Shown here: piece by piece, positions 27,330-59,852 of the stretch
Numbering within the stretch: the stretch's first letter is position 1
Layout: every line of letters starts with the position of its first letter
Origin: Elusimicrobiota bacterium
Lineage (GTDB): Bacteria; Elusimicrobiota; Elusimicrobia; 2-02-FULL-39-32
Length of the DNA: 64,000 bases
Assembly (NCBI GenBank): GCA_021730935.1
Contig: JAKFYJ010000011.1
Span: 3,401 to 67,400 of the forward strand
Reading direction: 5' to 3'
Translations under genes and position numbers: made by a program
Notes under the pieces: generated by a model
The model's database searches: none
What the model was told of the DNA's origin: nothing
The model's input: the letters and a program-made list of their open reading frames with translations, nothing else

Positions 27330-27365
27330 GTTAGTACCCTCCTTGTGGTTTAGTGTATCTTTGAA

Positions 27366-27417
27366 ATTAAAAAAACCTGACAAAAAATCACAACCCTCCT
27401 TGGCTGTGTTTGTCAGG
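27366..27417 (-). terminator. Terminator-like leader hairpin plus U7 upstream of the amtB SD (candidate attenuator)
   Basis: mRNA sense: CCUGACAAA-CACAGCC-AAGGAG-GGUUGUG-AUUU-UUUGUCAGG-UUUUUUU. A 9-bp outer stem and a 7-bp inner stem with a G-U pair, with an SD-like AAGGAG in the loop. About 35 nt further on comes the real SD and the ATG. Confidence 0.45.
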
Positions 27418-27636
27418 CGCCTTTGCCTTTTCGCGGAATGTCGTCACGTCCTTGTTTCGTGATTCCGGTCTATGTTTTTGGTTTTAAAATAAAAAATCCT
27501 CCTCGGCCGCGTCTGACCTTGGAGGACCTCAATGTCCTTGTGAAAACTGCGTCACAACAATGTGACTGCCAGTATTATATACCAACCGCCCAAAACTTGT
27601 CAAGCATTATTTATATTTTTTTTATATCATCTATGC

Positions 27637-29460
27637 ATGGAACAAAACAACGCCTCCGAAATCATCATGCTTTCAAAGAAAAAATTTCTCGCGGGATGCG
27701 CGGGGGTCTCCTTAATAATTTTGGCCGTCGGCCATTTCTCCCCCATTCCGTCCTGGGTCGTCGCATTCGAAGTCATGGCAGTCATCCTTTCCTTATTCTT
27801 ATTGGGTTCGATGAAATATCAGCTCGATAAAAATGCTCTCACTTATGGCGGAGGCCTCGTCATTTTCGCCACTTTCTGGCAGGGTTGGTGGCCCACATCC
27901 GCTCTCAGGCAATCCGTTCAGGCGGGCGACCATGAATATTTGATCCATTTCTTCGGGCATTATTTCCTCACGCTTCACGGCTGGGACGAGCTCATCCACG
28001 CTGACACCATGCTTTTTATCCTGGGCTTGACCCTCTTCGTTTGCGCCATCGCCCAAACCCGCATCCTCGAATCCGTCAGCTTTGCGGTCCTCAAGAAAAA
28101 CAAAGGCGCTGTGGTCACAACAGTGGCGATTTTGACCGGGATCGTTGCTTTTTCTTCGGGCATTCTGGACGGCGTTTCCATGATCGGCCTCATGATCCGC
28201 ACCCTCGTCATCATCCTTCTTTTGGCCCGGGCCAACGAAGAGGCCATCCTCTTTTCCGTCATGGTGTCCACCATCGTCACCACCGTTTGCGGCATGTGGC
28301 TGGCTTATGGCGAGCCGCCCAACCTCATCATGAAAGCCAACCTCCATCCTTATTTGGACAACGCTTTTTTCCTCCGTTATTGCGTCCCTGCCGCCATCGG
28401 AAGCTATCTCATCGTGTTCTGGAACATCAGCCGGAGGCTGAGCGGCAGAAAAATCGACATGGAGAAGCTGGACATCGTGGACCGGTATACCGCCGATGTT
28501 CGTTTCCTGCAGGCGTCCCGACATGGAGAGGTCTTGACCCCCATTGAATTTTTAGAAGCCCACAAAGATTTGCTCGGCACCCTGTTGGCCCCTGTGGTCA
28601 AACGCCTTCACGCAGGCGAGTCCATGGGCGCGGCCCTCATTCAAGAGAATGTCCCTCAGTCCGCAAGAAAGGAACTTTTGGGCAAGTATGTTTCAGAAGA
28701 CCTTTCTGCCGCACTCGATGAGCACTATGCTCATGTGGTGAAGCAAAACGCGGAACATCTCGGCGCTTCCGAAATCAAAATCAAAAATCTTCTCGAGACC
28801 ATCAGCAAAGACAGATTGAAATGCCAAAAGATCGGCGGTTTGTCTTTTGTTCCTTTCATCGGGCTTTTGGTTTGGCACGGATTTGATCATCATGTCCCCC
28901 TTTTTCTGGCCTCCTTCACGGGTTTTTTCATCGCTTTCGCGGGAATTTTCTCCATCGAGAAAATGAGGAAACTGGCCCTCCGGGAAGCCGTGCATGAATA
29001 TATGGAATATCTTTTTCTGCTCCCCCTCTTCTTTTCCATCACGCTCCTGCAGAAAACAGGTTTTTTTGACCAGCTTTCCGGTCTCCTTCATACGGGAATA
29101 GAAAAATTGGGGGCGTCTCATGTGGCGTATCTGCAGTTTCTGGGCGCGACCTTCCTCTCAGCCATTTTGGACAACAACATTGTTGCGGATTTCACGAGCC
29201 GAGCCCTCCACGGACTGGAATTGGGGACGCTTCACTTGTTTGCCATGGCGCAAATCGCAGGATACGCCGCGGGCGGTTGCTGGACTCACATTGGTTCCGC
29301 TCAGTCTGTCGTGGCCTACTCTTTCATTAAACGCGAAGTGAATGAAAAGTTCACGCCTTTTCAGTGGATCCGGCTGATGACGCCGGTCATTCTGGAGATT
29401 GCCTTGCTTATGACCGTCGTGGTTTACGGCGAGGGGATCCTGCTTCAATACCTGCATTAA
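27637..29460 (+). CDS. Polytopic permease of the ion-transporter (ArsB/NhaD/CitMHS-like) superfamily with a central hydrophilic domain
   Basis: Two hydrophobic halves separated by a ~110-aa hydrophilic loop. Motif ...FLGATFLSAILDNNIVADFTS... The start is uncertain (ATG 27637; the track ORF begins at 27562). Confidence 0.5.
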   Translation: MEQNNASEIIMLSKKKFLAGCAGVSLIILAVGHFSPIPSWVVAFEVMAVILSLFLLGSMKYQLDKNALTYGGGLVIFATFWQGWWPTSALRQSVQAGDHEYLIHFFGHYFLTLHGWDELIHADTMLFILGLTLFVCAIAQTRILESVSFAVLKKNKGAVVTTVAILTGIVAFSSGILDGVSMIGLMIRTLVIILLLARANEEAILFSVMVSTIVTTVCGMWLAYGEPPNLIMKANLHPYLDNAFFLRYCVPAAIGSYLIVFWNISRRLSGRKIDMEKLDIVDRYTADVRFLQASRHGEVLTPIEFLEAHKDLLGTLLAPVVKRLHAGESMGAALIQENVPQSARKELLGKYVSEDLSAALDEHYAHVVKQNAEHLGASEIKIKNLLETISKDRLKCQKIGGLSFVPFIGLLVWHGFDHHVPLFLASFTGFFIAFAGIFSIEKMRKLALREAVHEYMEYLFLLPLFFSITLLQKTGFFDQLSGLLHTGIEKLGASHVAYLQFLGATFLSAILDNNIVADFTSRALHGLELGTLHLFAMAQIAGYAAGGCWTHIGSAQSVVAYSFIKREVNEKFTPFQWIRLMTPVILEIALLMTVVVYGEGILLQYLH

Positions 29461-36539: not shown

Positions 36540-37715
36540 ATGAGCCATGTCCAAATCGTTTCAGCGGCGCTGATCATCGTTTCAGGCGCGTTATTATACG
36601 CCAGGAATTCCTTCCGGCGGAGGCTGGAAGATCAGGCGCTCAATTTCAGCGCTCAGAGGGCGGATTTTGAGAGAGAAGTTTTCGCGCTCCGCATAAAGAA
36701 CGAGGAGTTTTCGGGAATCCTCAGGAGCATGGCGGAGCTGGTCATCGCTGTCGATCCTGAGGGCCGTATCCTTTATTTGAACCCGTCGGCGGAAAAAATA
36801 TTCCAGGTCAACAGCGGGGCGAGCATCGGGAAATCCTTTCTGGAAGTGATCCGTCAATCCACCGTGAGCGCTTTGATTTCACTGGCGCTCAAAGCGGGGG
36901 CAGAGGTTTCGGAGAGCATTCACCTCTTCCTTCCCGACGAGAAGTTTTTTGACGCGAAGGCGATCCCCCTCGTCGCCGACATGAAGACCCGCGGAGTGCT
37001 TTTGGTTTTGCATGATGTGACAGCCGTAAAAAAGCTTGAGGAAGTTCGCAAAGATTTTGTCGCCAATGTCTCGCATGAGCTCCGGACCCCTCTCACTTCC
37101 ATTCAGGGCTATGCCGAAACTTTGCTGGACGGGGCCCTTTCTGACGATAAAAATAACCGTGAATTCGTGCAGACGATCCATGACCAGGCCGAACGGCTCA
37201 GCCGGCTCGTGAACGATTTGCTGGATCTTTCCGCCATTGAATCCGGCAGAAAAACTCCGAAATCGGCGGATTTTATATTGAAGGATTTGATCGCTGAAGT
37301 CAAAAACTCCCTCTCGCCCCTCGCCAAAAAACGCGGAGTCAAAATAGACGCGGATATTCCCGAAAATCTTGTGTTCCGAGCCGATCGAGATCAAATCAAA
37401 CAGGTTCTGATCAATCTTGTGGACAACGCCGTGAAGTTCAATCGCAAGGGCGGAACGGTTTTTCTTTCAGCGTCGTCAAACGAATCCGGAACAACCCTCC
37501 AGGTGAAAGACAGCGGAAACGGAATTCCGGAATCGGATTTGCCGAGGATTTTTGAGAGGTTTTATCGCGTCGACAAAGGGCGTTCGCGCGAAGAAGGCGG
37601 GACGGGGCTGGGCCTGGCCATTGTGAAACATATCGTTGAAGCCCATGGCGGAACGGTGCGCGTTGAAAGCCTTTCCGGAGAAGGTTCGACATTTTTTGTG
37701 CATTTGCCAAAATGA
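36540..37715 (+). CDS. phoR: Sensor histidine kinase, PhoR-like (tentative)
   Basis: An N-terminal TM segment, a PAS-like region, an H-box FVANVSHELRTPLTSIQGY (very close to the E. coli PhoR H-box) and a HATPase domain. An extended -10 TGGTAAAAT ends 6 nt before the ATG, suggesting a possible leaderless transcript. Confidence 0.7.
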   Translation: MSHVQIVSAALIIVSGALLYARNSFRRRLEDQALNFSAQRADFEREVFALRIKNEEFSGILRSMAELVIAVDPEGRILYLNPSAEKIFQVNSGASIGKSFLEVIRQSTVSALISLALKAGAEVSESIHLFLPDEKFFDAKAIPLVADMKTRGVLLVLHDVTAVKKLEEVRKDFVANVSHELRTPLTSIQGYAETLLDGALSDDKNNREFVQTIHDQAERLSRLVNDLLDLSAIESGRKTPKSADFILKDLIAEVKNSLSPLAKKRGVKIDADIPENLVFRADRDQIKQVLINLVDNAVKFNRKGGTVFLSASSNESGTTLQVKDSGNGIPESDLPRIFERFYRVDKGRSREEGGTGLGLAIVKHIVEAHGGTVRVESLSGEGSTFFVHLPK

Positions 37716-45020: not shown

Positions 45021-45240
45021 AAGATTTTCTCCTCGACATAATAAAATTGATGGGTAAAGTTTATCTGATTCACGGACCCATGGACATGGCGGGCAATTAA
45101 AATCTGTTTGACGGTCTGTTGACAGGAGGGAATGAGGTTTGTCATATGGATGAAACACGGATTTTACATTCGGGGCATGTGTGGAAAGCCTTAAAGGTGG
45201 TATGATTGACAGGTATAATACACACAAGGTCATCGTCCTC

Positions 45241-47361
45241 ATGAAACCTAAAAATTCCCCGCCCAAGTGGCGATCATTTTCCGCGTATCTCAGGGATCTT
45301 TCGGGTGGTAAACGTCTTCTGGACGAGCCCACCGCGAAAGAACCGGATTTTTTCAACCGCGAACTTTCCTGGCTGAGGTTCAACGAGCGTGTTCTGAGCG
45401 AAGCGGCAGACTCTTCAGTTCCCCCACTGGAACGGCTCAACTTCGCGGCGATTGTGAGCACGAACCTGGACGAGTTTTTTATGGTGAGAGTGGCCGAAGT
45501 GGCGAGGCTGGCCAAACGCCTCCGGGGCCGGCATTTCAACGCTCCTTTTCATCCCACCCGCATCCTCGCCAAAATACGCGCCCATGTCATCAAGCAGAAA
45601 GAGAAACAATCGGTGATATTAAAAGATATCTTTCGCGCTTTGGGCGGTCACGGCATCCAGATTTTCTCTGAGTTTAAGGAATTTGCAGACCTGGACCGCG
45701 AGATCATGCAGGCACTCCCGAACCTGAGCTTCATCTTTAGGAAATATGCCGAGCCGCTCCCTCACCTGAAAAGCGGGCGCATCCATGTTTTGGTCCGCTT
45801 CACAAGTGAATACGCCGTCATCAGCCTTGAACACCGTGCCGACCGCCTTCTCCGGCTTCCTGATGATGCCGCGGGACAACGATATGTCCTTCTGGACCGT
45901 TGGATCGCGGCCCGCGCACAGAGTTTTTTCCCCAGCCGCGAAGTTCAGGAAGCCTTTTGCTTCAAGATCATCCGTGACGCTGATCTGCAGTTCCGCCGCG
46001 ACGACGACGCTGACGATTTGGAAGAGCAGATTGTCGAAGCCGTGCACAGGCGCTCCAACGCGCGCGTGGTGAGGCTGGAAGTGGACAGTCCTTCTTATTC
46101 TGAAGGATGCCTTTATCTTGCCACCATGATCGGCCTCGATTCCGCGGCACTTTACACTTTCAATCTCCCGCTGGATCTCAAAACGCTCCTGCGAATCTGT
46201 AAAAATGATCCGCCCAAAACTTTAAGATATCCCCCCATTTCTCCGATCCTGCCGCAGGCTTTTTCCCATAATCCTAATGTGTTCGAGGTGATAAAAAAGA
46301 AGGACGTTCTGCTCCATCATCCTTATGATTCCTTCGATGTCGTCGTGAATTTCCTGAACCAATCCTCGATGGATCCGAACGTCGCTTCGATCTGGCACAC
46401 GCTTTACCGCACAAGCAGTGAATCGCCCAACATGATGGCTTTGAAAAATGCCGCTCTCGCAGGGAAAAAAGTGGTGGTTTATGTGGAGATCAAGGCGCGT
46501 TTTGACGAGCTCAACAATGTGAAGTGGGCCGCGGAACTGAAAAAGGCCGGGTGCAAAGTCATCCGCGCCTTCGGGCATTTCAAGGTCCATTCCAAGCTCA
46601 CGCAGGTGGTGAGAGTTGAGAGCGGGAAAGAAGTATTTTATACCCACCTTGGAACCGGCAATTATCATCCAGACACGGCGAAATTGTATACGGATCTGGG
46701 GTTGCTCACCGCCGACCAAAACCTTGGGAAAGAAGTCGCTTCCTATTATAATTGGCTCTGGAAAGGCGAAAAACCCAGGTTCACTTTCAAAGATATTTTT
46801 GTGGCCCCTCAGGATTTGGACAGCCGTTTTCTTAAACTAATAAAAGAAGAAACCAAGATTCAGAAGGCAGGCGGCGCGGGCGTGATCTGGGCGAAAATGA
46901 ATTCTCTCGTCGATTCTAAGCTCATCGAAGCTTTGTATGAAGCGTCGCAAGCGGGAGTGAAAATTCGTCTCCTGGTGAGAGGAATCTGCTGTCTCAAGCC
47001 GGGAATCAAGGGACTGAGCGAGAACATTTCGGTGAAAAGCGTCGTGGACCGCTTTTTGGAGCACAGCCGCATTTATTATTTCAGGGCGGGAGGCAAAGAC
47101 AAGATTTATCTTTCCAGCGCGGATTGGATGCCGAGAAATTTCAATTCGCGTTATGAAATCGCATTTGCCGTGAAGGATCCTGAACTCAAATCTTATGTGA
47201 AAGACGTGATCCTGGCCAGAAGCCTGGGCGACAATGTGAAGGCCTGGAAGCTCTTGTCCGACGGAAAATATGTCAGGATTGTTCCGAAGCTTGGAGAAAA
47301 ACCGCTCCGGAGCCAGCAGATGTTCGCGGAACTCGCTTTAGCGGCGGCCGAAAAAAATTGA
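45241..47361 (+). CDS. ppk: Polyphosphate kinase 1
   Basis: FFNRELSWLRFNERVLSEAAD..., the conserved N-domain. The phospho-His region KVIRAFGHFKVHSKL and a PLD-like C-terminus are present. The start is uncertain (45181 GTG, 45202 ATG or 45241 ATG). A TATAAT lies at 45214..45219. Confidence 0.85.
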   Translation: MKPKNSPPKWRSFSAYLRDLSGGKRLLDEPTAKEPDFFNRELSWLRFNERVLSEAADSSVPPLERLNFAAIVSTNLDEFFMVRVAEVARLAKRLRGRHFNAPFHPTRILAKIRAHVIKQKEKQSVILKDIFRALGGHGIQIFSEFKEFADLDREIMQALPNLSFIFRKYAEPLPHLKSGRIHVLVRFTSEYAVISLEHRADRLLRLPDDAAGQRYVLLDRWIAARAQSFFPSREVQEAFCFKIIRDADLQFRRDDDADDLEEQIVEAVHRRSNARVVRLEVDSPSYSEGCLYLATMIGLDSAALYTFNLPLDLKTLLRICKNDPPKTLRYPPISPILPQAFSHNPNVFEVIKKKDVLLHHPYDSFDVVVNFLNQSSMDPNVASIWHTLYRTSSESPNMMALKNAALAGKKVVVYVEIKARFDELNNVKWAAELKKAGCKVIRAFGHFKVHSKLTQVVRVESGKEVFYTHLGTGNYHPDTAKLYTDLGLLTADQNLGKEVASYYNWLWKGEKPRFTFKDIFVAPQDLDSRFLKLIKEETKIQKAGGAGVIWAKMNSLVDSKLIEALYEASQAGVKIRLLVRGICCLKPGIKGLSENISVKSVVDRFLEHSRIYYFRAGGKDKIYLSSADWMPRNFNSRYEIAFAVKDPELKSYVKDVILARSLGDNVKAWKLLSDGKYVRIVPKLGEKPLRSQQMFAELALAAAEKN

Positions 47362-48177
47362 AGTGCAGCGGTGATATTTGTCCAGGCTTTCGGTTTTCAG
47401 CCGGAAACTCCGAACCACTTTTCTGTCGAACTTAACCAAATCTTGCAGATGCCGGAGTTTGCTGAACAGGGAGCTGTTTTCGGCCTTGATCTCATTTTCA
47501 TATTCATAAAAAGTTGAAAGCGGATAGGGCCCCATGGGCGTGATGTGGAAAGCAGAAACGCGGTCGATGGACGGTTCCAAATAAGCTCCATCGCCCAGGT
47601 CCACCGAATATTTGTCCTTCTGATACAAACTGATGATGGGCGCTGAAGAAATTTTTCCGATGGTGTTTTCCCCCAGGTGCCTTTTCATCGATTGAACCAT
47701 CGCTTTCCCGGCATGCCGTTTCAGGATCATGGGGACGGAAGTCTTGGCAAAGTGGATGGCGTCATGATGGCTTTCTTCAAGCGAAATTCTCCGAAGAGCC
47801 GTTGAAGAAAACTCGGAACGGAAGAGCAGGTCGTTTTCTAAAAAACCCGGACCTTTATACTGCAGATAAACTTTTGATCCCCCCTTTTTGAACCGGAGGC
47901 GCAAGCTCGCTCCCAGACGGAAAAGATCCATTTTAGGCGTGTCCAAGAACTGGTCAAAAAAATAGGTTGTTTTAATGTGGCGGGTTTTTTTGCTTTCCGA
48001 GATGAATTCTTTGAGCCGCTCGACTTGCCCCGGGAGGATGCGCTTTTTGGATTCTATTTCGACGAAGCGCAAGTCATCGATCTTGAGCGCAGAATAAAGT
48101 TCCTCTCTCAATCCTTCAAAATTATTGATGTCCATGACTTTGAGGCCAGTATACAACATTTTTTGCGTGTCACTCAC
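47338..48177 (-). CDS. CYTH-like domain protein (putative triphosphate tunnel metalloenzyme)
   Basis: The ExExK signature lies in ...LRFVEIESKKRIL... Later acidic motifs are present. Its 3' end overlaps the ppk1 3' end by 24 bp (convergent). Confidence 0.4.
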   Translation of the reverse strand: MSDTQKMLYTGLKVMDINNFEGLREELYSALKIDDLRFVEIESKKRILPGQVERLKEFISESKKTRHIKTTYFFDQFLDTPKMDLFRLGASLRLRFKKGGSKVYLQYKGPGFLENDLLFRSEFSSTALRRISLEESHHDAIHFAKTSVPMILKRHAGKAMVQSMKRHLGENTIGKISSAPIISLYQKDKYSVDLGDGAYLEPSIDRVSAFHITPMGPYPLSTFYEYENEIKAENSSLFSKLRHLQDLVKFDRKVVRSFRLKTESLDKYHRCTSIFFGRR

Positions 48178-48234
48178 TTTTTACACGGAATTTACCCCGC
48201 GATCATGGGCATTTTTGTCTTCATGGCCTATAAT
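48169..48234 (+). promoter_or_regulatory. Phased Pho-box-like heptamer array plus a -10 TATAAT for the PlcP-like operon
   Basis: Heptamers at an 11-bp pitch: GTCACTC (48169), TTTACAC (48180), TTTACCC (48191), a weak ATCATGG (48202) and TTTTGTC (48213). A 9-bp gap follows, then TATAAT at 48229..48234. Confidence 0.5.
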
Positions 48235-48271
48235 CTTGCTTGTGAATAACCTGTGGATAACTAAAGAGAAG

Positions 48272-49069
48272 TTGTCATATGACGAGCCGGAAGGAAAACA
48301 CCGGTATCGTTCCATCTTCATTTCCGACACGCACATCGGGACTGCGGGATGCAAATCCGATTTCTTGCTGGACTTCCTGAAACACAACGAATCCAAATAT
48401 CTTTATCTGGTCGGCGATATCATCGATGGTTGGGAACTCAAAAAATCCTGGAATTGGATGCAGGACCACAACGACATCATTCAGAAAGTCCTCCGCAAAG
48501 CCCGGAAAGGGACGAAAGTATTTTATATCCCTGGCAACCACGACGAGTTCCTGCGGGATTATTTGGGACACAAGTTCGGCGGCATTTCCGTGCTTTATGA
48601 AACCGTTCACAGGACCGCCGACGGCAAAAACCTGCTCGTCCTCCATGGAGATAAGTTCGACGGGATCATCATGAACTCGCGCTGGCTCGCGGAGCTCGGG
48701 AGCACGGCCTACAACTTCACGATCTTCATAAACCGTTGGTTCAACGCGGCGCGCAGAAAGCTGGGATATCCTTATTGGTCCCTTTCGGCGTATCTTAAAC
48801 TCAAGGTCAAAAGCGCCGGCGGGTTCATTGAAAACTTTGAGCGGGCCCTTGTCCGCGAAGCCAAGCGGCGCGGGATGGACGGGGTTGTCTGCGGGCACAT
48901 CCATAAAGCCGACATGAAAATGATCGACGGCATCGAATATTTGAACGACGGGGACTGGGTGGAAAGCTGCACGGCTTTGGTGGAACACTTTGACGGGCGT
49001 CTCGAAATCATTCACTGGCACGACGCGGTTGCTCCCACTCTCATGATGGCCCGCGCTGGGACGAGATGA
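48272..49069 (+). CDS. Calcineurin-like metallophosphoesterase, LpxH/PlcP-like
   Basis: Motifs FISDTHIG, YLVGDIIDGW, GNHDE and CGHIH. The probable TTG start is at 48272, with an AAAGAGAAG SD-like sequence upstream (no in-frame ATG exists upstream of the motifs). The 3' end overlaps the next gene as ATGA. Confidence 0.6.
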   Translation: MSYDEPEGKHRYRSIFISDTHIGTAGCKSDFLLDFLKHNESKYLYLVGDIIDGWELKKSWNWMQDHNDIIQKVLRKARKGTKVFYIPGNHDEFLRDYLGHKFGGISVLYETVHRTADGKNLLVLHGDKFDGIIMNSRWLAELGSTAYNFTIFINRWFNAARRKLGYPYWSLSAYLKLKVKSAGGFIENFERALVREAKRRGMDGVVCGHIHKADMKMIDGIEYLNDGDWVESCTALVEHFDGRLEIIHWHDAVAPTLMMARAGTR

Positions 49070-50064
49070 ACATCGTTCTCGTTTCGGATGCCTGGACGCC
49101 CCAGGTGAACGGAGTTGTGACCACCTTGAGGACGGTCTCAAACCAGCTTGAAGTTTTGGGGCATTCCGTTTATGTCGTGAGCCCCGACCAATTCAAAACC
49201 ATCCCGTGCCCGACCTATCCCGAAATCCGTCTTGCTCTGAATCCGGGCAAAAAAATTTCCGATCTCATGGCGTCCTTGAGGCCCTCGGCGGTCCATATTG
49301 CGACCGAAGGGCCTCTGGGAATCGCCGCGAGGTCTTATTGCATAAAACAAAGGATTCCCTTCACGACGTCGTTCCACACGCGTTTCCCCGAATATATCGA
49401 GGCGCGGACCAGAATTCCCTCACAGTGGACATATCCCCTCGTGCGCTGGTTCCACGGAGCGGCGAGCCGCACAATGGTGGCGACCGACACTCTGGTGAGC
49501 GAACTTTCGGGCAGAGGATTCAGCAATGTCGTGCGCTGGTCCAGAGGCGTGGACACGGACCTTTTTCATCCCAGATCCAAGGACTTCCTGCAATTCCCCA
49601 GACCCATCTTCCTTTATGTGGGCCGCGTTTCAGTGGAAAAGAACATCAAATCATTTTTGAATCTGAATTTGAAAGGAACGAAGCTGGTGGTCGGAGACGG
49701 CCCGGATCTGCGGAAACTTAAATCAGAATATCCGGAGGTAAAATTTGTTGGAGCAAAATTCGGAGAAGAGCTGGCCCATCATTATGCCGCGAGCGACGTT
49801 TTTGTGTTCCCCAGCAAGACAGACACTTTTGGGCTGGTCCTCCTGGAAGCCATGGCCAGCGGGATTCCGGTTGCGGCCTATCCTGTCCCCGGCCCCAACG
49901 ATGTGGTCGGCAATTCCGGAGCTGGAATCTTGTCGGACAATCTCGAGCAGGCCGCAGTGGACTGTCTGAAAATCGATCCTCAAATCTGCCGCGATCACGC
50001 TCTCAAATTTTCCTGGGAAGCCTGTTCCAAACTTTTTCTGAGCCACCTTGAACCCATCCATTAA
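49066..50064 (+). CDS. Glycosyltransferase family 4 (GT-B, retaining), Agt-like
   Basis: An N-terminal GT4 domain (NGVVTTLR...) and the C-terminal E-x7-E region (FVFPSKTDTFGLVLLEAMASGIPV). Confidence 0.7.
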   Translation: MNIVLVSDAWTPQVNGVVTTLRTVSNQLEVLGHSVYVVSPDQFKTIPCPTYPEIRLALNPGKKISDLMASLRPSAVHIATEGPLGIAARSYCIKQRIPFTTSFHTRFPEYIEARTRIPSQWTYPLVRWFHGAASRTMVATDTLVSELSGRGFSNVVRWSRGVDTDLFHPRSKDFLQFPRPIFLYVGRVSVEKNIKSFLNLNLKGTKLVVGDGPDLRKLKSEYPEVKFVGAKFGEELAHHYAASDVFVFPSKTDTFGLVLLEAMASGIPVAAYPVPGPNDVVGNSGAGILSDNLEQAAVDCLKIDPQICRDHALKFSWEACSKLFLSHLEPIH

Positions 50065-51175
50065 CATCCTTATTTTATACGCGTCCGTCGGAGAAGGCCA
50101 CCGAAGCGCCGCGCTCGCCGTTCAATCCGCCATGAAGGAGGCCCGCCCCGATGCTTATGTGGATTGCCTGGACGTCCTGCAGTTCGCTCGCCCCATTTTT
50201 AAGAAAATATATTCCGGAGGCTATGTTTCGCTCCTGCAGCGAGCGCCTTCGCTTGTGGCCTCTCTTTATGAAAACTTCGACCAAAACCGTCCCGGAGATT
50301 CCATCCTCGACTGCGTGAGGCTGTTTCTGGAAGAATCCGGGCTCCCTGAATTTGAGGAATTTCTTCAAAGCCGGCGTTATGACCTCATCATCAACACTCA
50401 TTTTTTGCCGACCGAAATTGTGGCGGCCCTTAAAAAGCGGGAAAAAATTTCCGTTCCTCAAGTGACGGTCACCACGGATTTCATGACGCACAAGCTCTGG
50501 GTGCATGAACCCTGCGAGCATTATTTTACGGCGACAGCGGAGGGTGCGGAACATTTGGAAACTTTTGGGGTCCCTAAAAATAAAATTACTCCTGCCGGAA
50601 TTCCCATCCGCCCTGGCTTTCACCCCAACGGCTTGGTGAAAAATGACCGGCCTTCGATCTTGGTCATCGGCGGCGGACTTGGACTGGGTCCCATTTTGGA
50701 CATTTATCGAAAACTCCTCGAGATTGAAACGCCTCTCACCCTTCAGGTGGTGGCGGGCCGAAACGAACAGGTCAAATCCGATCTTGAAAAGTTCCCAGTC
50801 CCTCCGCGGCATCAATCTTGCATTTATGGGTTCACCGAAAAAATGCCCGAACTCATGAGCCATGCGGACATCATCCTGACCAAACCCGGCGGGCTGAGCG
50901 TTTCCGAAGCCCTCGCTTCCGGCGCCGTGATCTGCGTCGTAAACCCCTTCCCCGGCCAGGAAGATTTCAACGCAGGATTTCTCATCCGCAATGAAGCCGG
51001 CATCTCGATCAAAGACACGAATTTAATCCCCGACGAAATTTCAGCGCTATTAAATAATAAAAATAAGGTTGAGATCATGAAGAAAAACTCCCATAATCTA
51101 TCCAAACCCCATGCCGCAAGAACCATCGCAGAAAAATCTCTGGAGTTTGTCGCCGCCCATGAAAAGAGAAATTAA
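50048..51175 (+). CDS. Diacylglycerol glycosyltransferase, MGDG-synthase/UgtP-like (GT28)
   Basis: N-terminus INILILYASVGEGHRSAALAV, the GT28 N-terminal signature. TTG start at 50048. Overlaps the previous gene. Confidence 0.6.
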   Translation: MNPSINILILYASVGEGHRSAALAVQSAMKEARPDAYVDCLDVLQFARPIFKKIYSGGYVSLLQRAPSLVASLYENFDQNRPGDSILDCVRLFLEESGLPEFEEFLQSRRYDLIINTHFLPTEIVAALKKREKISVPQVTVTTDFMTHKLWVHEPCEHYFTATAEGAEHLETFGVPKNKITPAGIPIRPGFHPNGLVKNDRPSILVIGGGLGLGPILDIYRKLLEIETPLTLQVVAGRNEQVKSDLEKFPVPPRHQSCIYGFTEKMPELMSHADIILTKPGGLSVSEALASGAVICVVNPFPGQEDFNAGFLIRNEAGISIKDTNLIPDEISALLNNKNKVEIMKKNSHNLSKPHAARTIAEKSLEFVAAHEKRN

Positions 51176-51725
51176 GCGGAAGCTCTTTCATGCTCTCTCG
51201 CTCGTCTATGCCGCGGGCTATTATTATCTCGGCAAGGAATCGGTGCTGAAAATACTCGTGCCTGCGATCGTGATCGTGGGGATTGTGGAGTCCTCCCGCC
51301 TTCTTTTTCCCAAACTGAATCAGGCCATCATGCCTCTTTTCGGCGGCATTCAGCGCGAGTCCGAAATGACCCGCTTCTCCGGCATCTTTTGGACTCTTTT
51401 GGGATGCATCCTCACCATTTGGATTTTTAAAGATCCCAGGATTATCCTCTGCTCGCTTGGATATTTGGTTTTCGCGGACGCGGCGGCGGCTCTCGTCGGA
51501 GTGCCGCTTGGACGCCATAAATTTTTCGGCAAGAGCATGGAAGGAAGCCTGGCATGTTTTACGGCCAGTCTTTTGGTGGGTTTGGTGTTTTTGAATCCTT
51601 TATGGGCCGTTTCCGCCGCATTTTTCGTCACGGCGGTGGAGCTCGCGCCCCTCCCCTGGAACGACAATTTATGGATTCCCACCCTCTCGGGCTGTTTCTT
51701 GACTCTAAAAAGTATTATTCTATAA
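51159..51725 (+). CDS. CTP-transferase-like integral membrane protein (CdsA / phytol-dolichol kinase family)
   Basis: MKREIKRKLFHALSL...ADAAAALVGVPLGRHKF..GKSMEGSLACF, the family's C-terminal signature. Multiple TM segments. The start overlaps the previous gene. Confidence 0.45.
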   Translation: MKREIKRKLFHALSLVYAAGYYYLGKESVLKILVPAIVIVGIVESSRLLFPKLNQAIMPLFGGIQRESEMTRFSGIFWTLLGCILTIWIFKDPRIILCSLGYLVFADAAAALVGVPLGRHKFFGKSMEGSLACFTASLLVGLVFLNPLWAVSAAFFVTAVELAPLPWNDNLWIPTLSGCFLTLKSIIL

Positions 51726-51727
51726 CC

Positions 51728-52411
51728 ATGCTGAAAGAAAAAGTCCTCATCGTTGAAGACGAAAAAGAAATTTCCAAGCTCCTGAAATATAACCTCGAAA
51801 AAGAGGGGTATCAGGTTTTTGCCGCGACCGACGGAGAAGCGGGGCTTGCCCTCGCGAAATCCAAACATCCCGACATGATCATTCTGGACCTCATGCTCCC
51901 CAAACTTTCCGGTATCGAAGTCTGCAAGATGATCCGCAAAGATTCCCAGGTGCCCATCATCATGCTCACAGCCAAAAAAGAAGAGACGGACCGCGTTCTG
52001 GGCTTGGAACTCGGCGCCGACGATTATGTGACCAAACCTTTCAGTGTCCGGGAACTCCTGGCCAGGATAAAATCCCTTTTCCGCAGGTCCAAAGAAAAAA
52101 CGAGCGACGCGAAAGTCGTGCGCGCCGGAAAGTTGGAAGTGGACCTGGAACGATATGAAGTGAAACTCGCGGATAAGCTCGTTGAGCTTTCTTCCAAAGA
52201 ATTTACATTCCTCAAAGTCCTCCTCTCCGCCCAGGGCAAGGTGCTCACTCGCGATCAGCTTCTGGAATCAGTCTGGGGCTATGATCAGGCCTCTGAAATC
52301 GACACGCGCACCGTCGATCAGCATGTGGCGCGCCTGCGCGTCAAGCTCGGCTCGGAAGCGTCCCGCCTCGCCACCGTCAAAAACATCGGCTACAAATTCA
52401 AGATTAACTAA
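51728..52411 (+). CDS. phoB: OmpR/PhoB-family response regulator (tentative PhoB)
   Basis: A receiver domain (VLIVEDE...DLMLP...TAKKEETD) plus a winged-helix domain (TVDQHVARLRVKLG...IGYKF). It is similar to E. coli PhoB throughout. The real start is the ATG at 51728. Confidence 0.7.
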   Translation: MLKEKVLIVEDEKEISKLLKYNLEKEGYQVFAATDGEAGLALAKSKHPDMIILDLMLPKLSGIEVCKMIRKDSQVPIIMLTAKKEETDRVLGLELGADDYVTKPFSVRELLARIKSLFRRSKEKTSDAKVVRAGKLEVDLERYEVKLADKLVELSSKEFTFLKVLLSAQGKVLTRDQLLESVWGYDQASEIDTRTVDQHVARLRVKLGSEASRLATVKNIGYKFKIN

Positions 52412-52419
52412 AAAAATCC

Positions 52420-52448
52420 GTCACGGGACTTTCACACCCATTTTACTT
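52420..52448 (+). promoter_or_regulatory. Phased Pho-box-like heptamer array upstream of giant gene B
   Basis: GTCACGG (52420), 4 bp, TTCACAC (52431), 4 bp, TTTACTT (52442). The 7-4-7-4-7 geometry matches the arrays at pstS and the PlcP-like gene. Confidence 0.45.
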
Positions 52449-52499: not shown

Positions 52500-55400
52500 A
52501 TGATCAGGCGTCTCCTTCTCGCGTGTTATGTGTTTGCAATGACGGCTCCGCCCTATGCTGAGGCGTCTTTTTGGAGTGAAAGAAAAGCGGCAACGGAGCG
52601 GATGCATCAGTCCGGCAGGCAGATCCGCCGAATTCTTCCCCTTGAGAGTGAAGTCCAAAACCCCGTTTCAGATTTAGGCTTCTCAATTCCAGAATCTGTC
52701 GGGACTGTTGTTGAATCCTGGACGGAGGGATCGCCTCAGCTTCCGGTCATCCTGCACATCCAAGACGCGCACAACCATTTCGCGGCCCAAAAAAATCTGG
52801 CCCGAGTTTTGAACGCCGTTGCTGAAACCTCTGCAGATAAAACCGCGCTGAGTGACCCTTTGCCTGTTTATGTTGAAGGCGCTTGGACACGGATCGAGAC
52901 GGCCTTTTTAGGCGCTTTCCCGGACGAGCGGCTCAGGGAGAAGTCTGCGCAGACCCTGCTGAAGAAAAATCGGATCAGGGGCGAAGAATATTTTGCGATC
53001 CTGCATCCGGGGGCCATTGCGATTCATGGCGTTGAAGATCCCGATCTTTATCAGGCGAATGTGACAGCCCGGGACTCCGCGCGGTCTTCCCTGGACGCGC
53101 GTATCTCCGAAATCAATTCGGAACGCGCGCTGATCTCTCAGGCAAAGATGGAAATTTATCCCCCCTCGTTGCGCGAACTCGACCTTGTCCGAGAAAAAGT
53201 TGACGCTCAGCAAAATACGCTGAAAGATCTTCTCCGCCTCGTGATCAAGACCTGTCCCAAAACTTGGGCAAAGGATGCGTTCCCGGAACTGAAGAAATTC
53301 CTGGACGCCGCCGTTTTCGAAGATCAGGTTTCGTCAAAGGGTCTGGAAGGCGAGCGCGCCGCAGTCCAGAAAATTCTAAGCGAAAACCTAACGGGTTCCC
53401 AGGCGTCGGATTTCCTGAACCTTTGCCTTCAGTTCCGTCTTGGGAAAGTCAGTTCGCGCGTTTTTCATTCCCGCCTTGCCTCCATGGCCAGAGCCTTTTC
53501 AATTCATGTCCCCAACCTCGACAATCTTGTCCAAGGCCTGAACCAGTCAGGAAATATTGGCTATGACAAAATAGAAAAAGAATTGGACGAGCTTATGATT
53601 TCTGCGTCTGCAGAATTGATTGAATCTCAGGTTCGGCCGGAACTTCGTCAAAGGGCGAACGAAATATATGGCAAAGACCGGACCCTCTCTTTCAACGCCA
53701 AGTGCCTCAAATGGCAGGTGTCATCGAACGAATGGCACCGCCGAAGAAATGAAATTGAATCCATCAACCAGGGCCAGGTCAAGTTTATGGCTGAATCGTA
53801 TTATGACCTCGCTTTGCGGCGGGACCGGGCCATGGTTGAAAACCTCTCGCGATGCATCAAGCCCGGAACGCGCTCGGCCATTCTCATTGCCGGGGGATAT
53901 CACACCGAAGGCATCACGGAACTTCTGAAAGCAAAAGGGTTCCGTTATCTCGTTATCCGTCCTTCTTTGCAGATTGAATCGGGTGAAAGCTCCGCGGAGG
54001 GTCTCTCTTCGCTTCAGGCATGGGATGACCTAAAATCCGCCTATGCCGGCGCGCTCGAAAAGATCCTTTCTCAAGACAAAGAAGCTTTGTCTGTCAGAGA
54101 AGCGGTGGATGTCCTGAAGACCCTGGATTTGTCTGTGCCAGTTTTGATTGATGGAAAGCCCTATGCTTTGGGGCATTCCCCCTTCCTCTCGCCTTCCAGC
54201 TTCGCATGGCCGTTGACGGGACGCGGGATGGACGGGAACTATGCAAAATCCGGAACTAAAAAAATATACGGCCACACTCTGCGCAGCATGAGCGCATTTA
54301 ACAGCATGGGTTCTCCTGCCCGGCTTCTGCCTGAATTTTTTGCGGCGATGCTGCAGAACGGCGGCGAATCGATGGAAGACCTCAGGGTTTTGGAGGATTT
54401 ACTGCATGACGGCATGACGCTTGAATTGCCTGAAGGCAGTCACGGCGCGGCCGGAGGCATTATCAAACTTCTTTCGAAGGTGCGGTTTGTTCCCGGGCTG
54501 ATGAACATTGCGCATAACGGATCTCTTCGGATCACGATTAAACGCGACCGCCTGCCGGAAACCATGGTGACTCCGGCATCCATATTTTATCCTTATCGCA
54601 AGGCTGTCCTGGAAAAACGCCTCCCGAAACCTCAGTCTTGGGCGAAAAAAACCGCGATGTTTCTGGGTGAACTCAAGGTCACCGCGGTTTGGGAAACCGT
54701 GCTTTTTAGAATATTGCCTGTGCTGATGTTTCAGCAGGGAGGTTCCATTCACTCTCAAGGCTGGACCGCAGGAGCCCTCACGCTTCTGACCCTCTTTCCT
54801 CTTTCCCACTCAATCGTTTCATGGCGCGTGCATGAGAGTGAAATCAAGGGCCGCTCAGCGGTTAAGCCCCGATATATGGCCAATCTCTTTGTTCACCTCG
54901 GCATCAGTTTGTTTTTGCTCGTTCCGTTTTTCCAGTTCAGTCTTGTTCCCGCCGCGGCCGTCAGTTTGGGGACGCAGATGCTCCTGGACTTCGCCATCGA
55001 CGGGGCTCTGGATAACCATAAAAATGATAACCGTCATTATTCTCAAGCGATGCCTTATCAAGAGAAAGAGCTTCCTTCAACCTTGGAAGTCACGAACCCG
55101 GACCTGGTGAAATGGAGAGAAATTCTCAACAGCCCTGCGCCTCTTGGAAGGAAAGAGTGCATGGCCATCCTGAACATCGCCAAAGCCGTGATCAACAACA
55201 ATTTCATCAGGCCCCGGACCCTGGTGAGATATCTCCACGAGGTTGGGCGCACCAACCGACAGCTGACGATCCTCAGCCGTGTGACTGCCGACCGTCTCAT
55301 TCTCCAGGTCGAAAACGGCTCTTTGGACCCTGATCTGGCCCATGATCTGGTGCGTTATGCGAGAGAGCTCAAAAAATTTGCGGGATATTCCCTGATTTAT

Positions 55401-58124
55401 CGCCTCGGCATGACGCGCGTGAGCAATTACCGCCAGTTGTCAGGATACGGTCTTCCCGTCGGAGGACACCGCACGCGGTTTAAGCATCTGATGGAGGGAT
55501 TCATCCGGCCTTTCGCCTGGATGGTCCAAAAATTTTGGGGTTTCAGTTTCGGGATGTTCGTGGTCAGGAAACAATTTTTCGGAGCCGAAGGAAATGATGG
55601 GCGGTTTTGGAAAAAACTTTTCGGCGAAGGGCACCTTTCCGCCATGCTGAATGCCGGAAACGAGGTGGAGCCTTCATTATATCCCGAGGCGAAAAACATA
55701 AAAAAAGTCCTGTTCGAGGAAATGCGCCATTTGAACATCCAAACGGCGGAATTCGACAACGAATTGACCTGGCCCTGGCGAAAAATCATGACCCGCATTT
55801 TCGGTCTTTCTTTCGTGGTTCTGCTTCTGGATGTTTCGGTCTATGGTTTCAACTGGCTCGTTTATGGGGCCCCTTTCACTTATACGCTTTCCAGCGCCAT
55901 CATTTCCGCGGGGCGCGCAGTGCTTTTCTCCATTTTTATGTCCTGGTCATTCATTTTGTTCGGGATGAGAGACAGTTTTTATGCCGCTGAAAGCAAGAAA
56001 CTGAAATCTCTTGAAAACCGCATTTCGGAAGCCGAACAGAGGGTCAGCGAAAGTTCGCCCTCGGGAGGGAAAACATTGCTTCAGTCAGAATATTTGCGGA
56101 CTTTGTCGTCTGCGGATAAGGAAAAATCGATGTCGGCACCCTCGGCGGACATCATCCTTCTCGTCACTCCTCCCGGGCGGACAGAATCCGCGGAACTGCG
56201 CGGCATTCTGGAAGGCAGAGGCAAAGGATTGTTGCGGCAGGATGTCCCCGTGATCACTCTTCCCAGCCAGCGCGAAGGGAGCGGGATGGGATATCTCAAC
56301 TCCATGCAATACCTTCATTCTCCGGAATTTGAAATGGAAAGATCGAAACATCCCCATTTGCGGGGCCGGAGCCTGGACGATCTCCGAGTCCTTGTCTTGT
56401 TGGCGGATGAACCCTCAGTCAAGTCCGCGGCCACTCCGCTTTCCCTCCCCTTTCTGGACCGCGCGATTACGCCGCTCGAATTTTCACTTCTGAACGGATA
56501 CAAAGCCTGCCAGGCGATGTCGGGCGAGCGCAGGGGCGGCGTGGCCGTCATGTTCTCTGATGAGCTTTTCATCAGCCCCATCCAGGTCCAGAACGGGATC
56601 ACGCTCTTGACGTCCTGGGTCGGTTATAAAGACCTGGTCGACCAGAACATGGACCTGATGGTCGTGGACCGCTCTTTCCGTCGAGTGCAGAAATTTTATC
56701 CCAACGCCATCAGCGAGGATCCAATGCACATGAAGAACCGGGTGGAGCGCCAGGCGGTCACGGCGAGGTATGACCTCTCCAATCCTGTCAAAAAGCAGAT
56801 GATCGCTTTTACGGGCGGATTTGTCGCGTCTTTTGCCGATGCCAGCGCCGCTGAAAGTTTTTATTCCGCGAATGAGCGGATCCGCCGGCAGGTCAACGAC
56901 AGAAGGCGCCGCAGTTATCCGATCGATCTCGAGAGCCACCTCCTGGCTCCCATGGTGATCGCCTCAAACAGGGAAGATGTTTATAGCTATCTTGCCAAAC
57001 ACAGGAACGGAAGGCCTTTGGCCCTGAAAAGTCGGGAATGGGCTTTTTTCAGCGGGCTTATGCAGGCGGTGGAACAGAGCCAGGGCATTGAGGTCAACGC
57101 CTCGGTTCCCTATCCCACACAGTCCGCCTTTTATTTTACCCGCACCAAGGAAGGCGTGCCTTATTATGACGACGCGCAAATCGCTCAGCTCTGGAAAGAC
57201 CTCGGCGTTGCTGACGAATTTCGTTCGTCGTCTGTTCAGGATGATTCTAAACCGTCACAATTTTCAAAATTTGGAGATCAATTCCGCGTTATTGCGGTTC
57301 GCACGGCTGTTTTAATCCTTTTCGTCTTCTCCAATGTTCCCCCCGTTTCCCGTTGGTCTGCGAGCCGCCTCGAAGCCATTGCCGTCAGACCGGAGTTCAA
57401 TTTGCTCCAGCCTGAAACCCGCTCTCAAGTCAGGATAAAAATTCTCGGATCCCGAGCCCGTTCCGGTCCCGTAAACGGGGCAGGCCTTGTAGACCGCCAT
57501 TTTGAAAAACTATTGAATGTTTTGAGTGCTGAAAGGTCCGGAACGCTCAGTCCGGGATATTTCGTCGTGAACCTCAACGGCCTCCTGAACCGGACGGAGC
57601 AGGGATTCGAATTCAGGGAAGAGTTGTCGGATATCCTGACCCGTCTGGACGGAAGGATGTCTCAAAATTCCGATTTGGATCAGGGGTCGGGTTTTGTTTT
57701 CATCAGCGATCAGCCCAGAGAACAAATAGAAGAACTGGCGGCGAGCCTTGGGGTGTCTGCGGGGCACATTCGGATCATCGCTCCGACAGCGCAGTCGGCT
57801 GAACATGAAATCCGCATTAAAAACGGATCCGTAAAATCGGTCCTTTCATGCCGTGAGCCCGGAACAATAAATGAAATGAAAAAAATATTCAAAAACGCGG
57901 ACGCCCTCCTCCTCACACCGTTTTTCGCTGAGATCGATCACGATTATACGGTTCACGGCGGCGCGGCATCAGAAATATACAAGGGATTGGAACAGGAAGG
58001 GCTGATTTCGGACCGGGTTCATTATTCCCCGAAGGACCAAACCCTCATCCTGGAGGGAAGGGCCGCGGAAACAGACCTTTCCCTGAGGCTCCGGCGCGTC
58101 CGATATGTGCGCATCCAGGCATGA
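52500..58124 (+). CDS. Giant polytopic membrane protein B (1874 aa) with an N-terminal ChaN/Tiki-like domain; paralog of giant A
   Basis: Signal peptide MIRRLLLACYVFAMTAPPYAEA. ChaN-like motifs: LHIQDAHNH ... RGEEYFAILHP ... IHGVEDPDLY ... AILIAGGYHTEG. Many hydrophobic segments are spread over the remaining ~1300 aa, with large soluble regions of unknown family. Confidence 0.75.
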   Translation: MIRRLLLACYVFAMTAPPYAEASFWSERKAATERMHQSGRQIRRILPLESEVQNPVSDLGFSIPESVGTVVESWTEGSPQLPVILHIQDAHNHFAAQKNLARVLNAVAETSADKTALSDPLPVYVEGAWTRIETAFLGAFPDERLREKSAQTLLKKNRIRGEEYFAILHPGAIAIHGVEDPDLYQANVTARDSARSSLDARISEINSERALISQAKMEIYPPSLRELDLVREKVDAQQNTLKDLLRLVIKTCPKTWAKDAFPELKKFLDAAVFEDQVSSKGLEGERAAVQKILSENLTGSQASDFLNLCLQFRLGKVSSRVFHSRLASMARAFSIHVPNLDNLVQGLNQSGNIGYDKIEKELDELMISASAELIESQVRPELRQRANEIYGKDRTLSFNAKCLKWQVSSNEWHRRRNEIESINQGQVKFMAESYYDLALRRDRAMVENLSRCIKPGTRSAILIAGGYHTEGITELLKAKGFRYLVIRPSLQIESGESSAEGLSSLQAWDDLKSAYAGALEKILSQDKEALSVREAVDVLKTLDLSVPVLIDGKPYALGHSPFLSPSSFAWPLTGRGMDGNYAKSGTKKIYGHTLRSMSAFNSMGSPARLLPEFFAAMLQNGGESMEDLRVLEDLLHDGMTLELPEGSHGAAGGIIKLLSKVRFVPGLMNIAHNGSLRITIKRDRLPETMVTPASIFYPYRKAVLEKRLPKPQSWAKKTAMFLGELKVTAVWETVLFRILPVLMFQQGGSIHSQGWTAGALTLLTLFPLSHSIVSWRVHESEIKGRSAVKPRYMANLFVHLGISLFLLVPFFQFSLVPAAAVSLGTQMLLDFAIDGALDNHKNDNRHYSQAMPYQEKELPSTLEVTNPDLVKWREILNSPAPLGRKECMAILNIAKAVINNNFIRPRTLVRYLHEVGRTNRQLTILSRVTADRLILQVENGSLDPDLAHDLVRYARELKKFAGYSLIYRLGMTRVSNYRQLSGYGLPVGGHRTRFKHLMEGFIRPFAWMVQKFWGFSFGMFVVRKQFFGAEGNDGRFWKKLFGEGHLSAMLNAGNEVEPSLYPEAKNIKKVLFEEMRHLNIQTAEFDNELTWPWRKIMTRIFGLSFVVLLLDVSVYGFNWLVYGAPFTYTLSSAIISAGRAVLFSIFMSWSFILFGMRDSFYAAESKKLKSLENRISEAEQRVSESSPSGGKTLLQSEYLRTLSSADKEKSMSAPSADIILLVTPPGRTESAELRGILEGRGKGLLRQDVPVITLPSQREGSGMGYLNSMQYLHSPEFEMERSKHPHLRGRSLDDLRVLVLLADEPSVKSAATPLSLPFLDRAITPLEFSLLNGYKACQAMSGERRGGVAVMFSDELFISPIQVQNGITLLTSWVGYKDLVDQNMDLMVVDRSFRRVQKFYPNAISEDPMHMKNRVERQAVTARYDLSNPVKKQMIAFTGGFVASFADASAAESFYSANERIRRQVNDRRRRSYPIDLESHLLAPMVIASNREDVYSYLAKHRNGRPLALKSREWAFFSGLMQAVEQSQGIEVNASVPYPTQSAFYFTRTKEGVPYYDDAQIAQLWKDLGVADEFRSSSVQDDSKPSQFSKFGDQFRVIAVRTAVLILFVFSNVPPVSRWSASRLEAIAVRPEFNLLQPETRSQVRIKILGSRARSGPVNGAGLVDRHFEKLLNVLSAERSGTLSPGYFVVNLNGLLNRTEQGFEFREELSDILTRLDGRMSQNSDLDQGSGFVFISDQPREQIEELAASLGVSAGHIRIIAPTAQSAEHEIRIKNGSVKSVLSCREPGTINEMKKIFKNADALLLTPFFAEIDHDYTVHGGAASEIYKGLEQEGLISDRVHYSPKDQTLILEGRAAETDLSLRLRRVRYVRIQA

Positions 58125-58208
58125 TCTGTCATGCTGATGTCATACAGACTTTACTTTCGCGCTATGGGTCAGCAGTCTGGATTCAAATAAAATAACGGGA
58201 GATTAAAT

Positions 58209-59810: not shown

Positions 59811-59823
59811 TCGTCAAACAGCG

Positions 59824-59852
59824 TTTACACGGGCGTCACACGGTTGTCACAT
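59824..59852 (+). promoter_or_regulatory. Pho-box-like array upstream of pstS
   Basis: TTTACAC, gggc, GTCACAC, ggtt, GTCACAT: three heptamers with 4-bp spacers. TAAAAT at 59861..59866 lies 8 bp downstream. Confidence 0.5.

Follow-up and report, generated by a model that had tools for sequence, protein, structure and literature searches.

A candidate phosphate-regulated lipid-remodelling gene cluster of the PlcP-Agt kind in an Elusimicrobiota bacterium

Background

What is the function of the tightly packed genes that lie between ppk1 and a phoB-like regulator gene on contig JAKFYJ010000011.1 of an Elusimicrobiota bacterium (GenBank assembly GCA_021730935.1), and are they likely to be controlled by phosphate? 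The stretch of this contig that was analysed, referred to here as the window, is 64,000 nt long (positions 3,401 to 67,400 of the forward strand), and all coordinates follow its numbering unless a relative is named; names consisting of L and a number denote contigs or loci of relatives. A preliminary description of the window had proposed a membrane-lipid remodelling operon of four genes under the control of phosphate starvation. The analysis described here suggests that the cluster is probably an operon for lipid remodelling that belongs to the Pho regulon and follows the PlcP-Agt pattern, an assignment made from sequence comparison and gene order, and that the phoB-like gene is most likely part of the transcription unit as well.

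The PlcP-Agt lipid-renovation pathway is well established in Proteobacteria. Characterised components are known from S. meliloti (SMc00171), Phaeobacter (MED193_17359), Pelagibacter HTCC7211 (PB7211_983 and PB7211_960) and P. aeruginosa (PA3219, PA3218 and PA0842), and further ones from Methylosinus trichosporium OB3b and A. tumefaciens (Agt, atu2297). PlcP carries out the Mn-dependent release of diacylglycerol from phospholipids, and the glycosyltransferases of the Agt/GTcp clade form monoglucosyl-diacylglycerol (MGlc-DAG) or glucuronosyl-diacylglycerol (GlcA-DAG) from diacylglycerol.

A PlcP-type metallophosphoesterase

The first gene of the cluster (Mpe; 48242-49069, + strand) encodes a metallophosphoesterase of 275 aa when read from the GTG at 48242, the start also chosen by the public gene call P0001; a TTG at 48272 is the alternative. 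The protein belongs to the calcineurin-type metallophosphoesterases (PF00149), as had been described previously, but the resemblance to LpxH that was claimed alongside is only remote. In PMC9239053, PlcP is defined by the motifs DXH, GDXXD, GNHD, HGD, GHIH and GDW, all common to LpxH as well, and by the histidine of the third motif (GNHD), which LpxH lacks and without which PlcP is inactive. Mpe carries all six motifs, as D29-T-H, G58-DIID, G98-NHD, H135-GD, G218-HIH and G237-DW, and they are common to 85 of the 85 homologs collected.

The neighbourhood of its homologs leads to the same assignment. A homolog scan of one genome per species was evaluated for its best 80 loci, which are mostly from Alpha- and Betaproteobacteria; no locus of Ensifer, Phaeobacter, Pelagibacter or P. 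aeruginosa was among its results. In about 65 of the 80, a GT4 glycosyltransferase gene comes directly after that of the Mpe homolog, its product being 50-61% identical to the one in the window, the arrangement named 'type 2' by Sebastian et al. Mpe itself is 55-66% identical to the proteobacterial proteins encoded directly upstream of an agt-type GT4; the characterised PlcPs are mutually 46-51% identical. In the window, the gene likewise stands behind a Pho-box array (triple score 18.1, described below) and overlaps an agt-type GT4, as the context of a PlcP requires.

The preliminary description had let its proposal depend on whether the enzyme groups with PlcP or with LpxH, and the comparison comes out on the side of PlcP. 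That the enzyme is instead the UDP-2,3-diacylglucosamine hydrolase of lipid A synthesis (LpxH, or an analogue of LpxG) is suggested by the label LpxH that the source databases attach to many proteins 62-70% identical to Mpe, and by the closest solved structures, the only relatives found among them by sequence being chains of P. aeruginosa LpxH (E = 3 × 10-4). However, identity to the latter is 24%, the aligned third motif reads GNHD in Mpe and GNRD in the Pseudomonas enzyme, and neither of the LpxH equivalog models is nearly reached (NF003743, 40.6 against a cut-off of 134 bits; TIGR01854, 35 against 190.35 bits). Furthermore, the closest relatives adjoin agt in proteobacterial loci, Proteobacteria are known to possess their own LpxH or LpxI, and the gene is missing from the locus in the close relative L082. 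An identity as LpxH is thus highly improbable and was rejected; by its motifs and its gene neighbourhood, Mpe is a PlcP-type enzyme.

Two types of glycosyltransferase

The second gene (49066-50064, + strand; 332 aa) encodes a protein with Pfam GT4 and GT1 domains, which the preliminary description had called Agt-like. Wei et al. (PMC8231724) characterised the Agt/GTcp clade by two motifs, GRVAXEKN and FPSXTDTFG, together with a His104-Asp256 dyad, and reported Gly16, Gly82, Gly85, Arg163, Arg190, Lys195, Glu264 and Trp320 as essential residues of GTcp, a protein of 334 aa. Both motifs are present in the window protein, as GRVSVEKN at residue 186 and FPSKTDTFG at residue 248, and every one of the mutationally validated residues has its counterpart. 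When positions are matched through the motifs, rather than by alignment to the GTcp sequence, G16, G82, G85 and H104 bear the same numbers as in GTcp, and R160, R187, K192, D253, E261 and W317 are each shifted by three positions. The earlier claim is borne out by these signatures, which mark the protein as a predicted diacylglycerol glycosyltransferase of the Agt/GTcp type.

The third gene (50048-51175, + strand; 375 aa from a TTG start) combines the MGDG_synth domain (PF06925, E = 2.4 × 10-28) with the C-terminal domain of GT28 (PF04101, E = 1.3 × 10-9), in accordance with its earlier description as an MGDG-synthase-like GT28. Its homologs are 44-48% identical, and the name widely given to them by JGI is processive 1,2-diacylglycerol beta-glucosyltransferase. 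As its full-length match to the UgtP model NF010135 stays below the cut-off, the protein is filed as UgtP-like only; it is likely, on the evidence of its domains and homologs, to be a diacylglycerol glycosyltransferase. The public gene call is 347 aa long and starts 28 codons after the TTG at 50048, so omitting the residues encoded by 50048-50132, which include the conserved glycine-rich G-E-G-H loop. Since the longer protein is matched by Pfam from residue 18 and by NCBIfam from residue 2, the TTG is the better start.

The GT28 had been presented as an extension of the plcP-agt scheme. This is true of the window in so far as both types of transferase occur together, but the juxtaposition of plcP with a UgtP-type transferase has been noted in the literature before, and two of the relatives, L008 and L049, have plcP followed by GT28 without a GT4.

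A Pho-box array upstream of the cluster

The region upstream of Mpe contains a series of heptamers at a phase of 11 bp: GTCACTC at 48169, TTTACAC at 48180, TTTACCC at 48191, ATCATGG at 48202 and TTTTGTC at 48213. The first four constitute the Pho-box array (48169-48208, + strand), and 9 bp separate the fifth (48213-48219) from the -10 hexamer TATAAT (48229-48234, + strand), which a promoter scan reported as TGGGCA-17-TATAAT with 10 of 12 positions matched. The positions, the phasing and the distance to the hexamer are thus exactly as the preliminary description had given them. A matrix was built from 14 heptamers, taken only from the pstS, porin and similar promoters of the related contigs L082, L084 and L049, and both strands of the window were scanned with it for units at 11-bp spacing. 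The five units of the Mpe promoter score 8.3, 6.9, 2.8, -1.4 and -5.2 bits, from which three are good and the earlier count of four to five was generous. The fourth has some claim to be retained, TTTACCC-N4-ATCATGG being conserved letter for letter in the orthologous promoter of L084/L085, where TATAAA lies 9 bp after the fifth phased position; the fifth unit itself is without support. Similarly, the units had been described as resembling TTTACAC, a heptamer that is indeed present, but this is one variant of a consensus that reads GTCAC(A/G)C.

Arrays of three such units are rare by chance. Five loci in the window have a triple array scoring at least 17, against a mean of 0.04 and a maximum of 1 in 200 dinucleotide-preserving shuffles. 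The highest score, 26.8, is found upstream of pstS (59813-59852), followed by 21.3 on the minus strand in the interval separating an ammonium transporter gene from that of a CitMHS-type permease (27538-27566), 18.1 in the Mpe promoter (48169-48197), 18.0 upstream of a 70-aa ORF and a Porin_5 gene (58128-58156) and 17.7 upstream of an 1874-aa gene (52420-52448, + strand; GTCACGG, TTCACAC and TTTACTT); a sixth array, upstream of ppk1 (45141-45169), scores 13.2. When units are taken in fours, the Mpe promoter is second-best in the window (16.7). Given the arrays at ppk1, Mpe, the 1874-aa gene, the 70-aa ORF with Porin_5 and pstS, the approximately 19 kb from ppk1 to pstB look like a single Pho island.

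The Mpe gene has a phased array with a -10-like hexamer in front of it in other lineages too: in L084/L085, in two loci from Elusimicrobiota genomes (L049 and L008) and in a metagenome contig (L166). In the sequences of five lineages, namely the window (48229-48244), L084 (3384-3400), L166, L049 and L008, the start codon is found 6-8 nt past the -10 hexamer (8 nt in the window). This geometry supports the GTG at 48242 as the start of Mpe and suggests that its transcript may be leaderless or nearly so. Among the proteobacterial homologs, a pair of units with a score of at least 8 lies upstream in 41%, compared with 0% of coding controls (22 loci in which the gene was located), which is weak support for a Pho box there.

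The regulator gene and the extent of the transcription unit

The five closely spaced genes on the + strand extend from 48242 to 52411. The stop of Mpe and the start of the GT4 gene have ATGA in common, an overlap of 4 nt (49066-49069); the GT4 and GT28 genes overlap by 17 nt, between the TTG at 50048 and the GT4 stop at 50064; and the fourth gene, open reading frame 4 (ORF4; 51159-51725, + strand), shares 17 nt with GT28 when read from the ATG at 51159, or 65 nt when read from that at 51111. The four overlapping genes of the preliminary description are therefore real, but the unit does not end with them, as a gene overlooked in that account follows 2 nt after ORF4. It encodes an OmpR-family response regulator of 227 aa (51728-52411, + strand; start ATG 51728), whose best NCBIfam match is the PhoB model TIGR02154. 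Terminator-like signals within the unit do not exceed the expectation from shuffled sequences, and the regulator gene, tightly packed behind the lipid genes, is probably co-transcribed with them. The array at 52420-52448, an equivalent of which stands after the regulator in both L082 and L171, marks the downstream limit of the unit.

The remaining phosphate genes of the window are readily recognised. The pstS product passes TIGR00975 and is followed by pstC, pstA and pstB, ppk1 passes TIGR03705, and a histidine kinase (36540-37715) passes the PnpS model (406.6 against 400 bits) and nearly that of PhoR (328.5 against 334.2 bits). In relatives, the regulator gene adjoins pstSCAB-phoU.

The regulatory assignment can be questioned. 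Were these enzymes to make envelope glycolipids unrelated to phosphate, the heptamers would either be bound by another OmpR-family regulator or have no function. The weakness of the promoter-proximal heptamers is in keeping with such a reading, as are the match of the matrix to the promoter region of the ammonium transporter and the score of the regulator, which at 243 bits falls short of the PhoB cut-off of 296. It is nevertheless quite unlikely, because the motif of the Mpe promoter recurs upstream of pstS, in relatives as well as in the window, the island from ppk1 to pstS contains all but one of the six best arrays in the window, the array has been kept before the Mpe gene in four further lineages, and all of the PlcP-agt operons studied in the literature are controlled by phosphate. 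The array at 27538-27566 could belong to a Pho-regulated transporter, or be a site for a different OmpR-family regulator; its flanking genes encode the ammonium transporter (25713-27383, - strand) and the CitMHS-type permease (27562-29460, + strand).

On its other side, the cluster had been placed next to ppk1. While the flanks of the region, ppk1 and the regulator, were correctly named, a divergent gene for a CYTH-domain protein (47338-48135, - strand) intervenes between ppk1 and Mpe. This CYTH-domain (triphosphate tunnel) protein adjoins ppk1 in relatives too, and that of L082 is 75% identical to it. The gene is divergent from the Pho-box region and plausibly belongs to the same regulon, its product being an enzyme of polyphosphate or triphosphate.

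The window also contains two giant paralogs, one of approximately 2080-2250 aa (38781 to about 45020, - strand) and the 1874-aa one (52500-58124, + strand). Both have a signal-like N-terminus, followed by A-E-A-(N/S)-(L/F)-W-S-E-R, and essentially no Pfam domain. They are preceded by Pho-box-like arrays, a weak one at 45084-45123 (- strand) and that at 52420-52448 respectively. They are present in the close relative L171 (3160-8577) and missing from L082, L083 and L091, in which synteny is otherwise retained.

A small membrane protein probably related to CTP-dependent enzymes

ORF4 encodes a polytopic membrane protein of 188 aa (204 aa from the ATG at 51111), the gene product previously described as CdsA-like. 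It has no match of its own in Pfam or NCBIfam, reaching 12.7 bits with PF01148 where 24 are required, and a profile built from it finds nothing among the PDB sequences even at E = 10. Only 96 homologs were found; where a source names them, the name is phosphatidate cytidylyltransferase or one of the kinase names that come from JGI annotations, namely dolichol kinase, diacylglycerol kinase (CTP) and phytol kinase. Of 48 homologs, 21 have weak matches to PF01148, all below threshold, and NCBIfam returned only noise for these 48. The AlphaFold model of ORF4 is confident (pLDDT 95.5), and its best fold matches are CarS and CdsA, although none of the matches in the Foldseek search of the PDB is significant. 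In the alignment of the family, D107, E161, D169 and N170 are invariant, and there is also a K-(S/T)-x-E-G-S stretch. D177 of Dgk1 is the conserved catalytic aspartate of the CTP-transferase domain; both D107 and D169 are invariant across the 48 homologs, and were placed without alignment to Dgk1.

On these grounds, ORF4 looks like a distant member of the CdsA/CarS/dolichol-kinase (CTP_transf_1) superfamily. The earlier label survives at the level of the superfamily and fails at that of the family: a true CdsA was rejected in view of the missed PF01148 threshold and the lack of any NCBIfam or PDB sequence match. The conserved residues are less like the signature of CdsA than like that of VTE5 and SEC59, which form the kinase branch; we take this as a lead rather than a test.

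Variation of the locus between relatives

Whether ORF4 and the regulator belong with the three lipid genes can be judged from the arrangement of the locus elsewhere. L171, the closest relative, agrees with the window as far as it can be seen, since an incomplete upstream gene is followed by GT28, ORF4, the regulator and the giant gene; in L095, GT4-GT28-ORF4 can be seen; the upstream genes of both are cut by contig ends. The order is Mpe-GT4-GT28-ORF4 in L084/L085, with the regulator elsewhere, and Mpe-GT28-ORF4 in L160 and L166. By contrast, L082, L083 and L091 have the CYTH gene on the minus strand followed by ORF4, the regulator, a porin gene, pstSCAB and phoU, and no lipid genes at the locus; their ORF4 and regulator are 82% and 88% identical to those of the window, respectively. 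L084 also has a second metallophosphoesterase gene, together with one for a His_Phos_1 phosphatase (7717-8846 of that contig), between ORF4 and the porin-pstS genes, this pair being preceded by an array GTCACGC-N4-GTCACAC at 7106.

Relative to the L082 type, the window thus differs by an indel of approximately 2.95 kb, which carries the three lipid genes together with their Pho-box promoter. Its edge can be seen within GT28: positions 51090-51117, at the 3' end of the gene, align with the 44-bp region between the CYTH gene and ORF4 in L082 and L091, and the last 30 or so codons of GT28 overlie sequence homologous to this intergenic region (51069-51117; 4185-4235 in L082). This segment marks one edge of the indel. 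It contains a sigma-70-like site, TTGAGA-17-CATAAT (51069-51097, + strand), which is a match to the consensus only and may be a basal promoter for ORF4 and phoB; a search of the ORF4 promoter of the L082 type found no Pho box. As the linkage of ORF4 to the lipid genes recurs in more distant lineages, loss in the L082 type is tentatively favoured over gain.

These comparisons are the basis of a further interpretation, in which a PlcP-Agt-UgtP cassette exists without ORF4, the latter and phoB form an older unit of two genes with a promoter of its own, and their adjacency to the lipid genes is a by-product of the indel. The gene order of L082, L083 and L091, the alignment of the GT28 end with their intergenic sequence and the sigma-70-like site just upstream of ORF4 can all be read in this way. 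Some distant ORF4 homologs, moreover, adjoin genes for PMT_2-type glycosyltransferases and ABC transporters, a context that suggests a role with polyprenol phosphate. Against this, ORF4 homologs of 42-52% identity follow Mpe-(GT4)-GT28 with no regulator adjacent in L084/L085, L095, L160 and L166, and the gene is closely joined to GT28, by the 17-nt overlap in the window and by a start directly after the GT28 stop in L084. An origin as two separate units is a serious possibility, but clearly the lesser one. The ORF4 family, which repeatedly travels with plcP and GT28, could represent a step of lipid remodelling that is new for bacteria.

Several observations weigh against the cluster as a whole being a Pho-controlled remodelling operon. 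To the two poor promoter-proximal heptamers (-1.4 and -5.2 bits), the second-best array of the window with its flanking genes that are not obviously of the Pho regulon, and the sub-threshold match of the regulator to PhoB must be added the full-length match of GT28 to NF010135, which scores 194.5 bits against a cut-off of 500, and the assignment of the first two proteins to PlcP and Agt by published motifs and orthologous synteny. Most ORF4 homologs occur in contexts unrelated to lipid genes, as is evident from most of the 80 metagenome loci, and close relatives (L082, L083 and L091) retain ORF4 and phoB minus the three lipid genes; together these last two points imply that ORF4 may not belong functionally to the lipid pathway.

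Proposed mechanism

For a Pho-regulated operon of the PlcP-Agt kind, we infer regulator binding, induction, the enzyme activities, their products and the role of ORF4 as follows. Under phosphate shortage, the phosphorylated PhoB-like regulator would bind the phased heptamers of the GTCAC(A/G)C type at 48169-48208 and activate a nearly leaderless transcript from the TATAAT at 48229. The PlcP-type phosphoesterase would split phospholipids into diacylglycerol and the phospho-head group, the phosphorus of which could be reused. The diacylglycerol would then be glycosylated to phosphorus-free glycolipids by two enzymes, of which the Agt-type GT4 is of the retaining and the UgtP-like GT28 of the inverting type, and which between them may yield two glycolipid series or a di-hexosyl product. 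The same transcript would continue into ORF4 and the regulator gene, resulting in positive autoregulation, with the sigma-70-like site inside GT28 possibly providing basal expression of ORF4 and phoB. ORF4 itself would most likely use CTP, as a lipid kinase or transferase with diacylglycerol or a polyprenol as its substrate.

Comparison with known systems

The similarities to the proteobacterial PlcP-Agt systems are a plcP-type gene directly upstream of, and overlapping, a GT4 gene of the Agt clade, an upstream Pho-box array and the full set of published PlcP and Agt sequence signatures. The differences are the host, which belongs to the Elusimicrobiota and not to the Proteobacteria; the presence of GT28, ORF4 and the phoB-like regulator gene in the same packed unit; and a promoter with units of GTCAC(A/G)C instead of CTGTCAT and a geometry that points to a leaderless transcript. 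Combinations of plcP with other glycosyltransferases are known as types 3 and 5 of Sebastian et al. 2016, and in Methylobacter or Crenothrix plcP adjoins a transferase of the B. subtilis UgtP type. The window resembles these in the UgtP/MGDG-synthase-like GT28 downstream of plcP, and differs from them in possessing both the Agt-type GT4 and the GT28.

Compared with the E. coli Pho box (CTGTCAT-N4-CTGTCAT, approximately 10 bp upstream of the -10 hexamer), the array likewise consists of 7-bp direct repeats with a period of 11 bp, takes the place of the -35 region before a well-matched -10 hexamer and recurs upstream of pstS. The sequence of its unit is different, however, it has three to four units rather than two, and the strongest are distal rather than proximal. 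ORF4 has in common with SEC59/DGK1/VTE5 and CdsA/CarS that it is a small polytopic membrane protein, and may share with them its invariant Asp residues; it differs from CdsA in its length (188 aa against about 260-290 aa) and in missing the PF01148 gathering score. A full-text search of the literature identified no paper mentioning both PlcP and Elusimicrobia. No characterised bacterial member of the SEC59/DGK1/VTE5-CdsA/CarS superfamily is known to be linked to Pho regulation, a point for which no systematic search was made. What is new here is the lineage, the joint occurrence of both transferase types, the packed regulator gene and the recurrently linked CTP_transf_1-like protein.

Conclusions

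The core of the pathway has already been well described. Its probable presence at this locus would extend the phosphorus-sparing PlcP-Agt pathway beyond the Proteobacteria to an Elusimicrobiota-like lineage, for which a Pho-box consensus of GTCAC(A/G)C at 11-bp phase can now be given. A more speculative suggestion, which we regard as somewhat doubtful, is that the ORF4 family consists of small bacterial CTP-dependent diacylglycerol kinases, similar to Dgk1, that were recruited to Pho-controlled lipid remodelling. If this were the case, part of the diacylglycerol released by PlcP would be phosphorylated again, which would maintain a minimal pool of phospholipid, prevent the build-up of diacylglycerol or allow a fast return to phospholipids once phosphate is available again. 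Being transcribed together with phoB, such a valve would be coupled to the autoinduction of the regulator.

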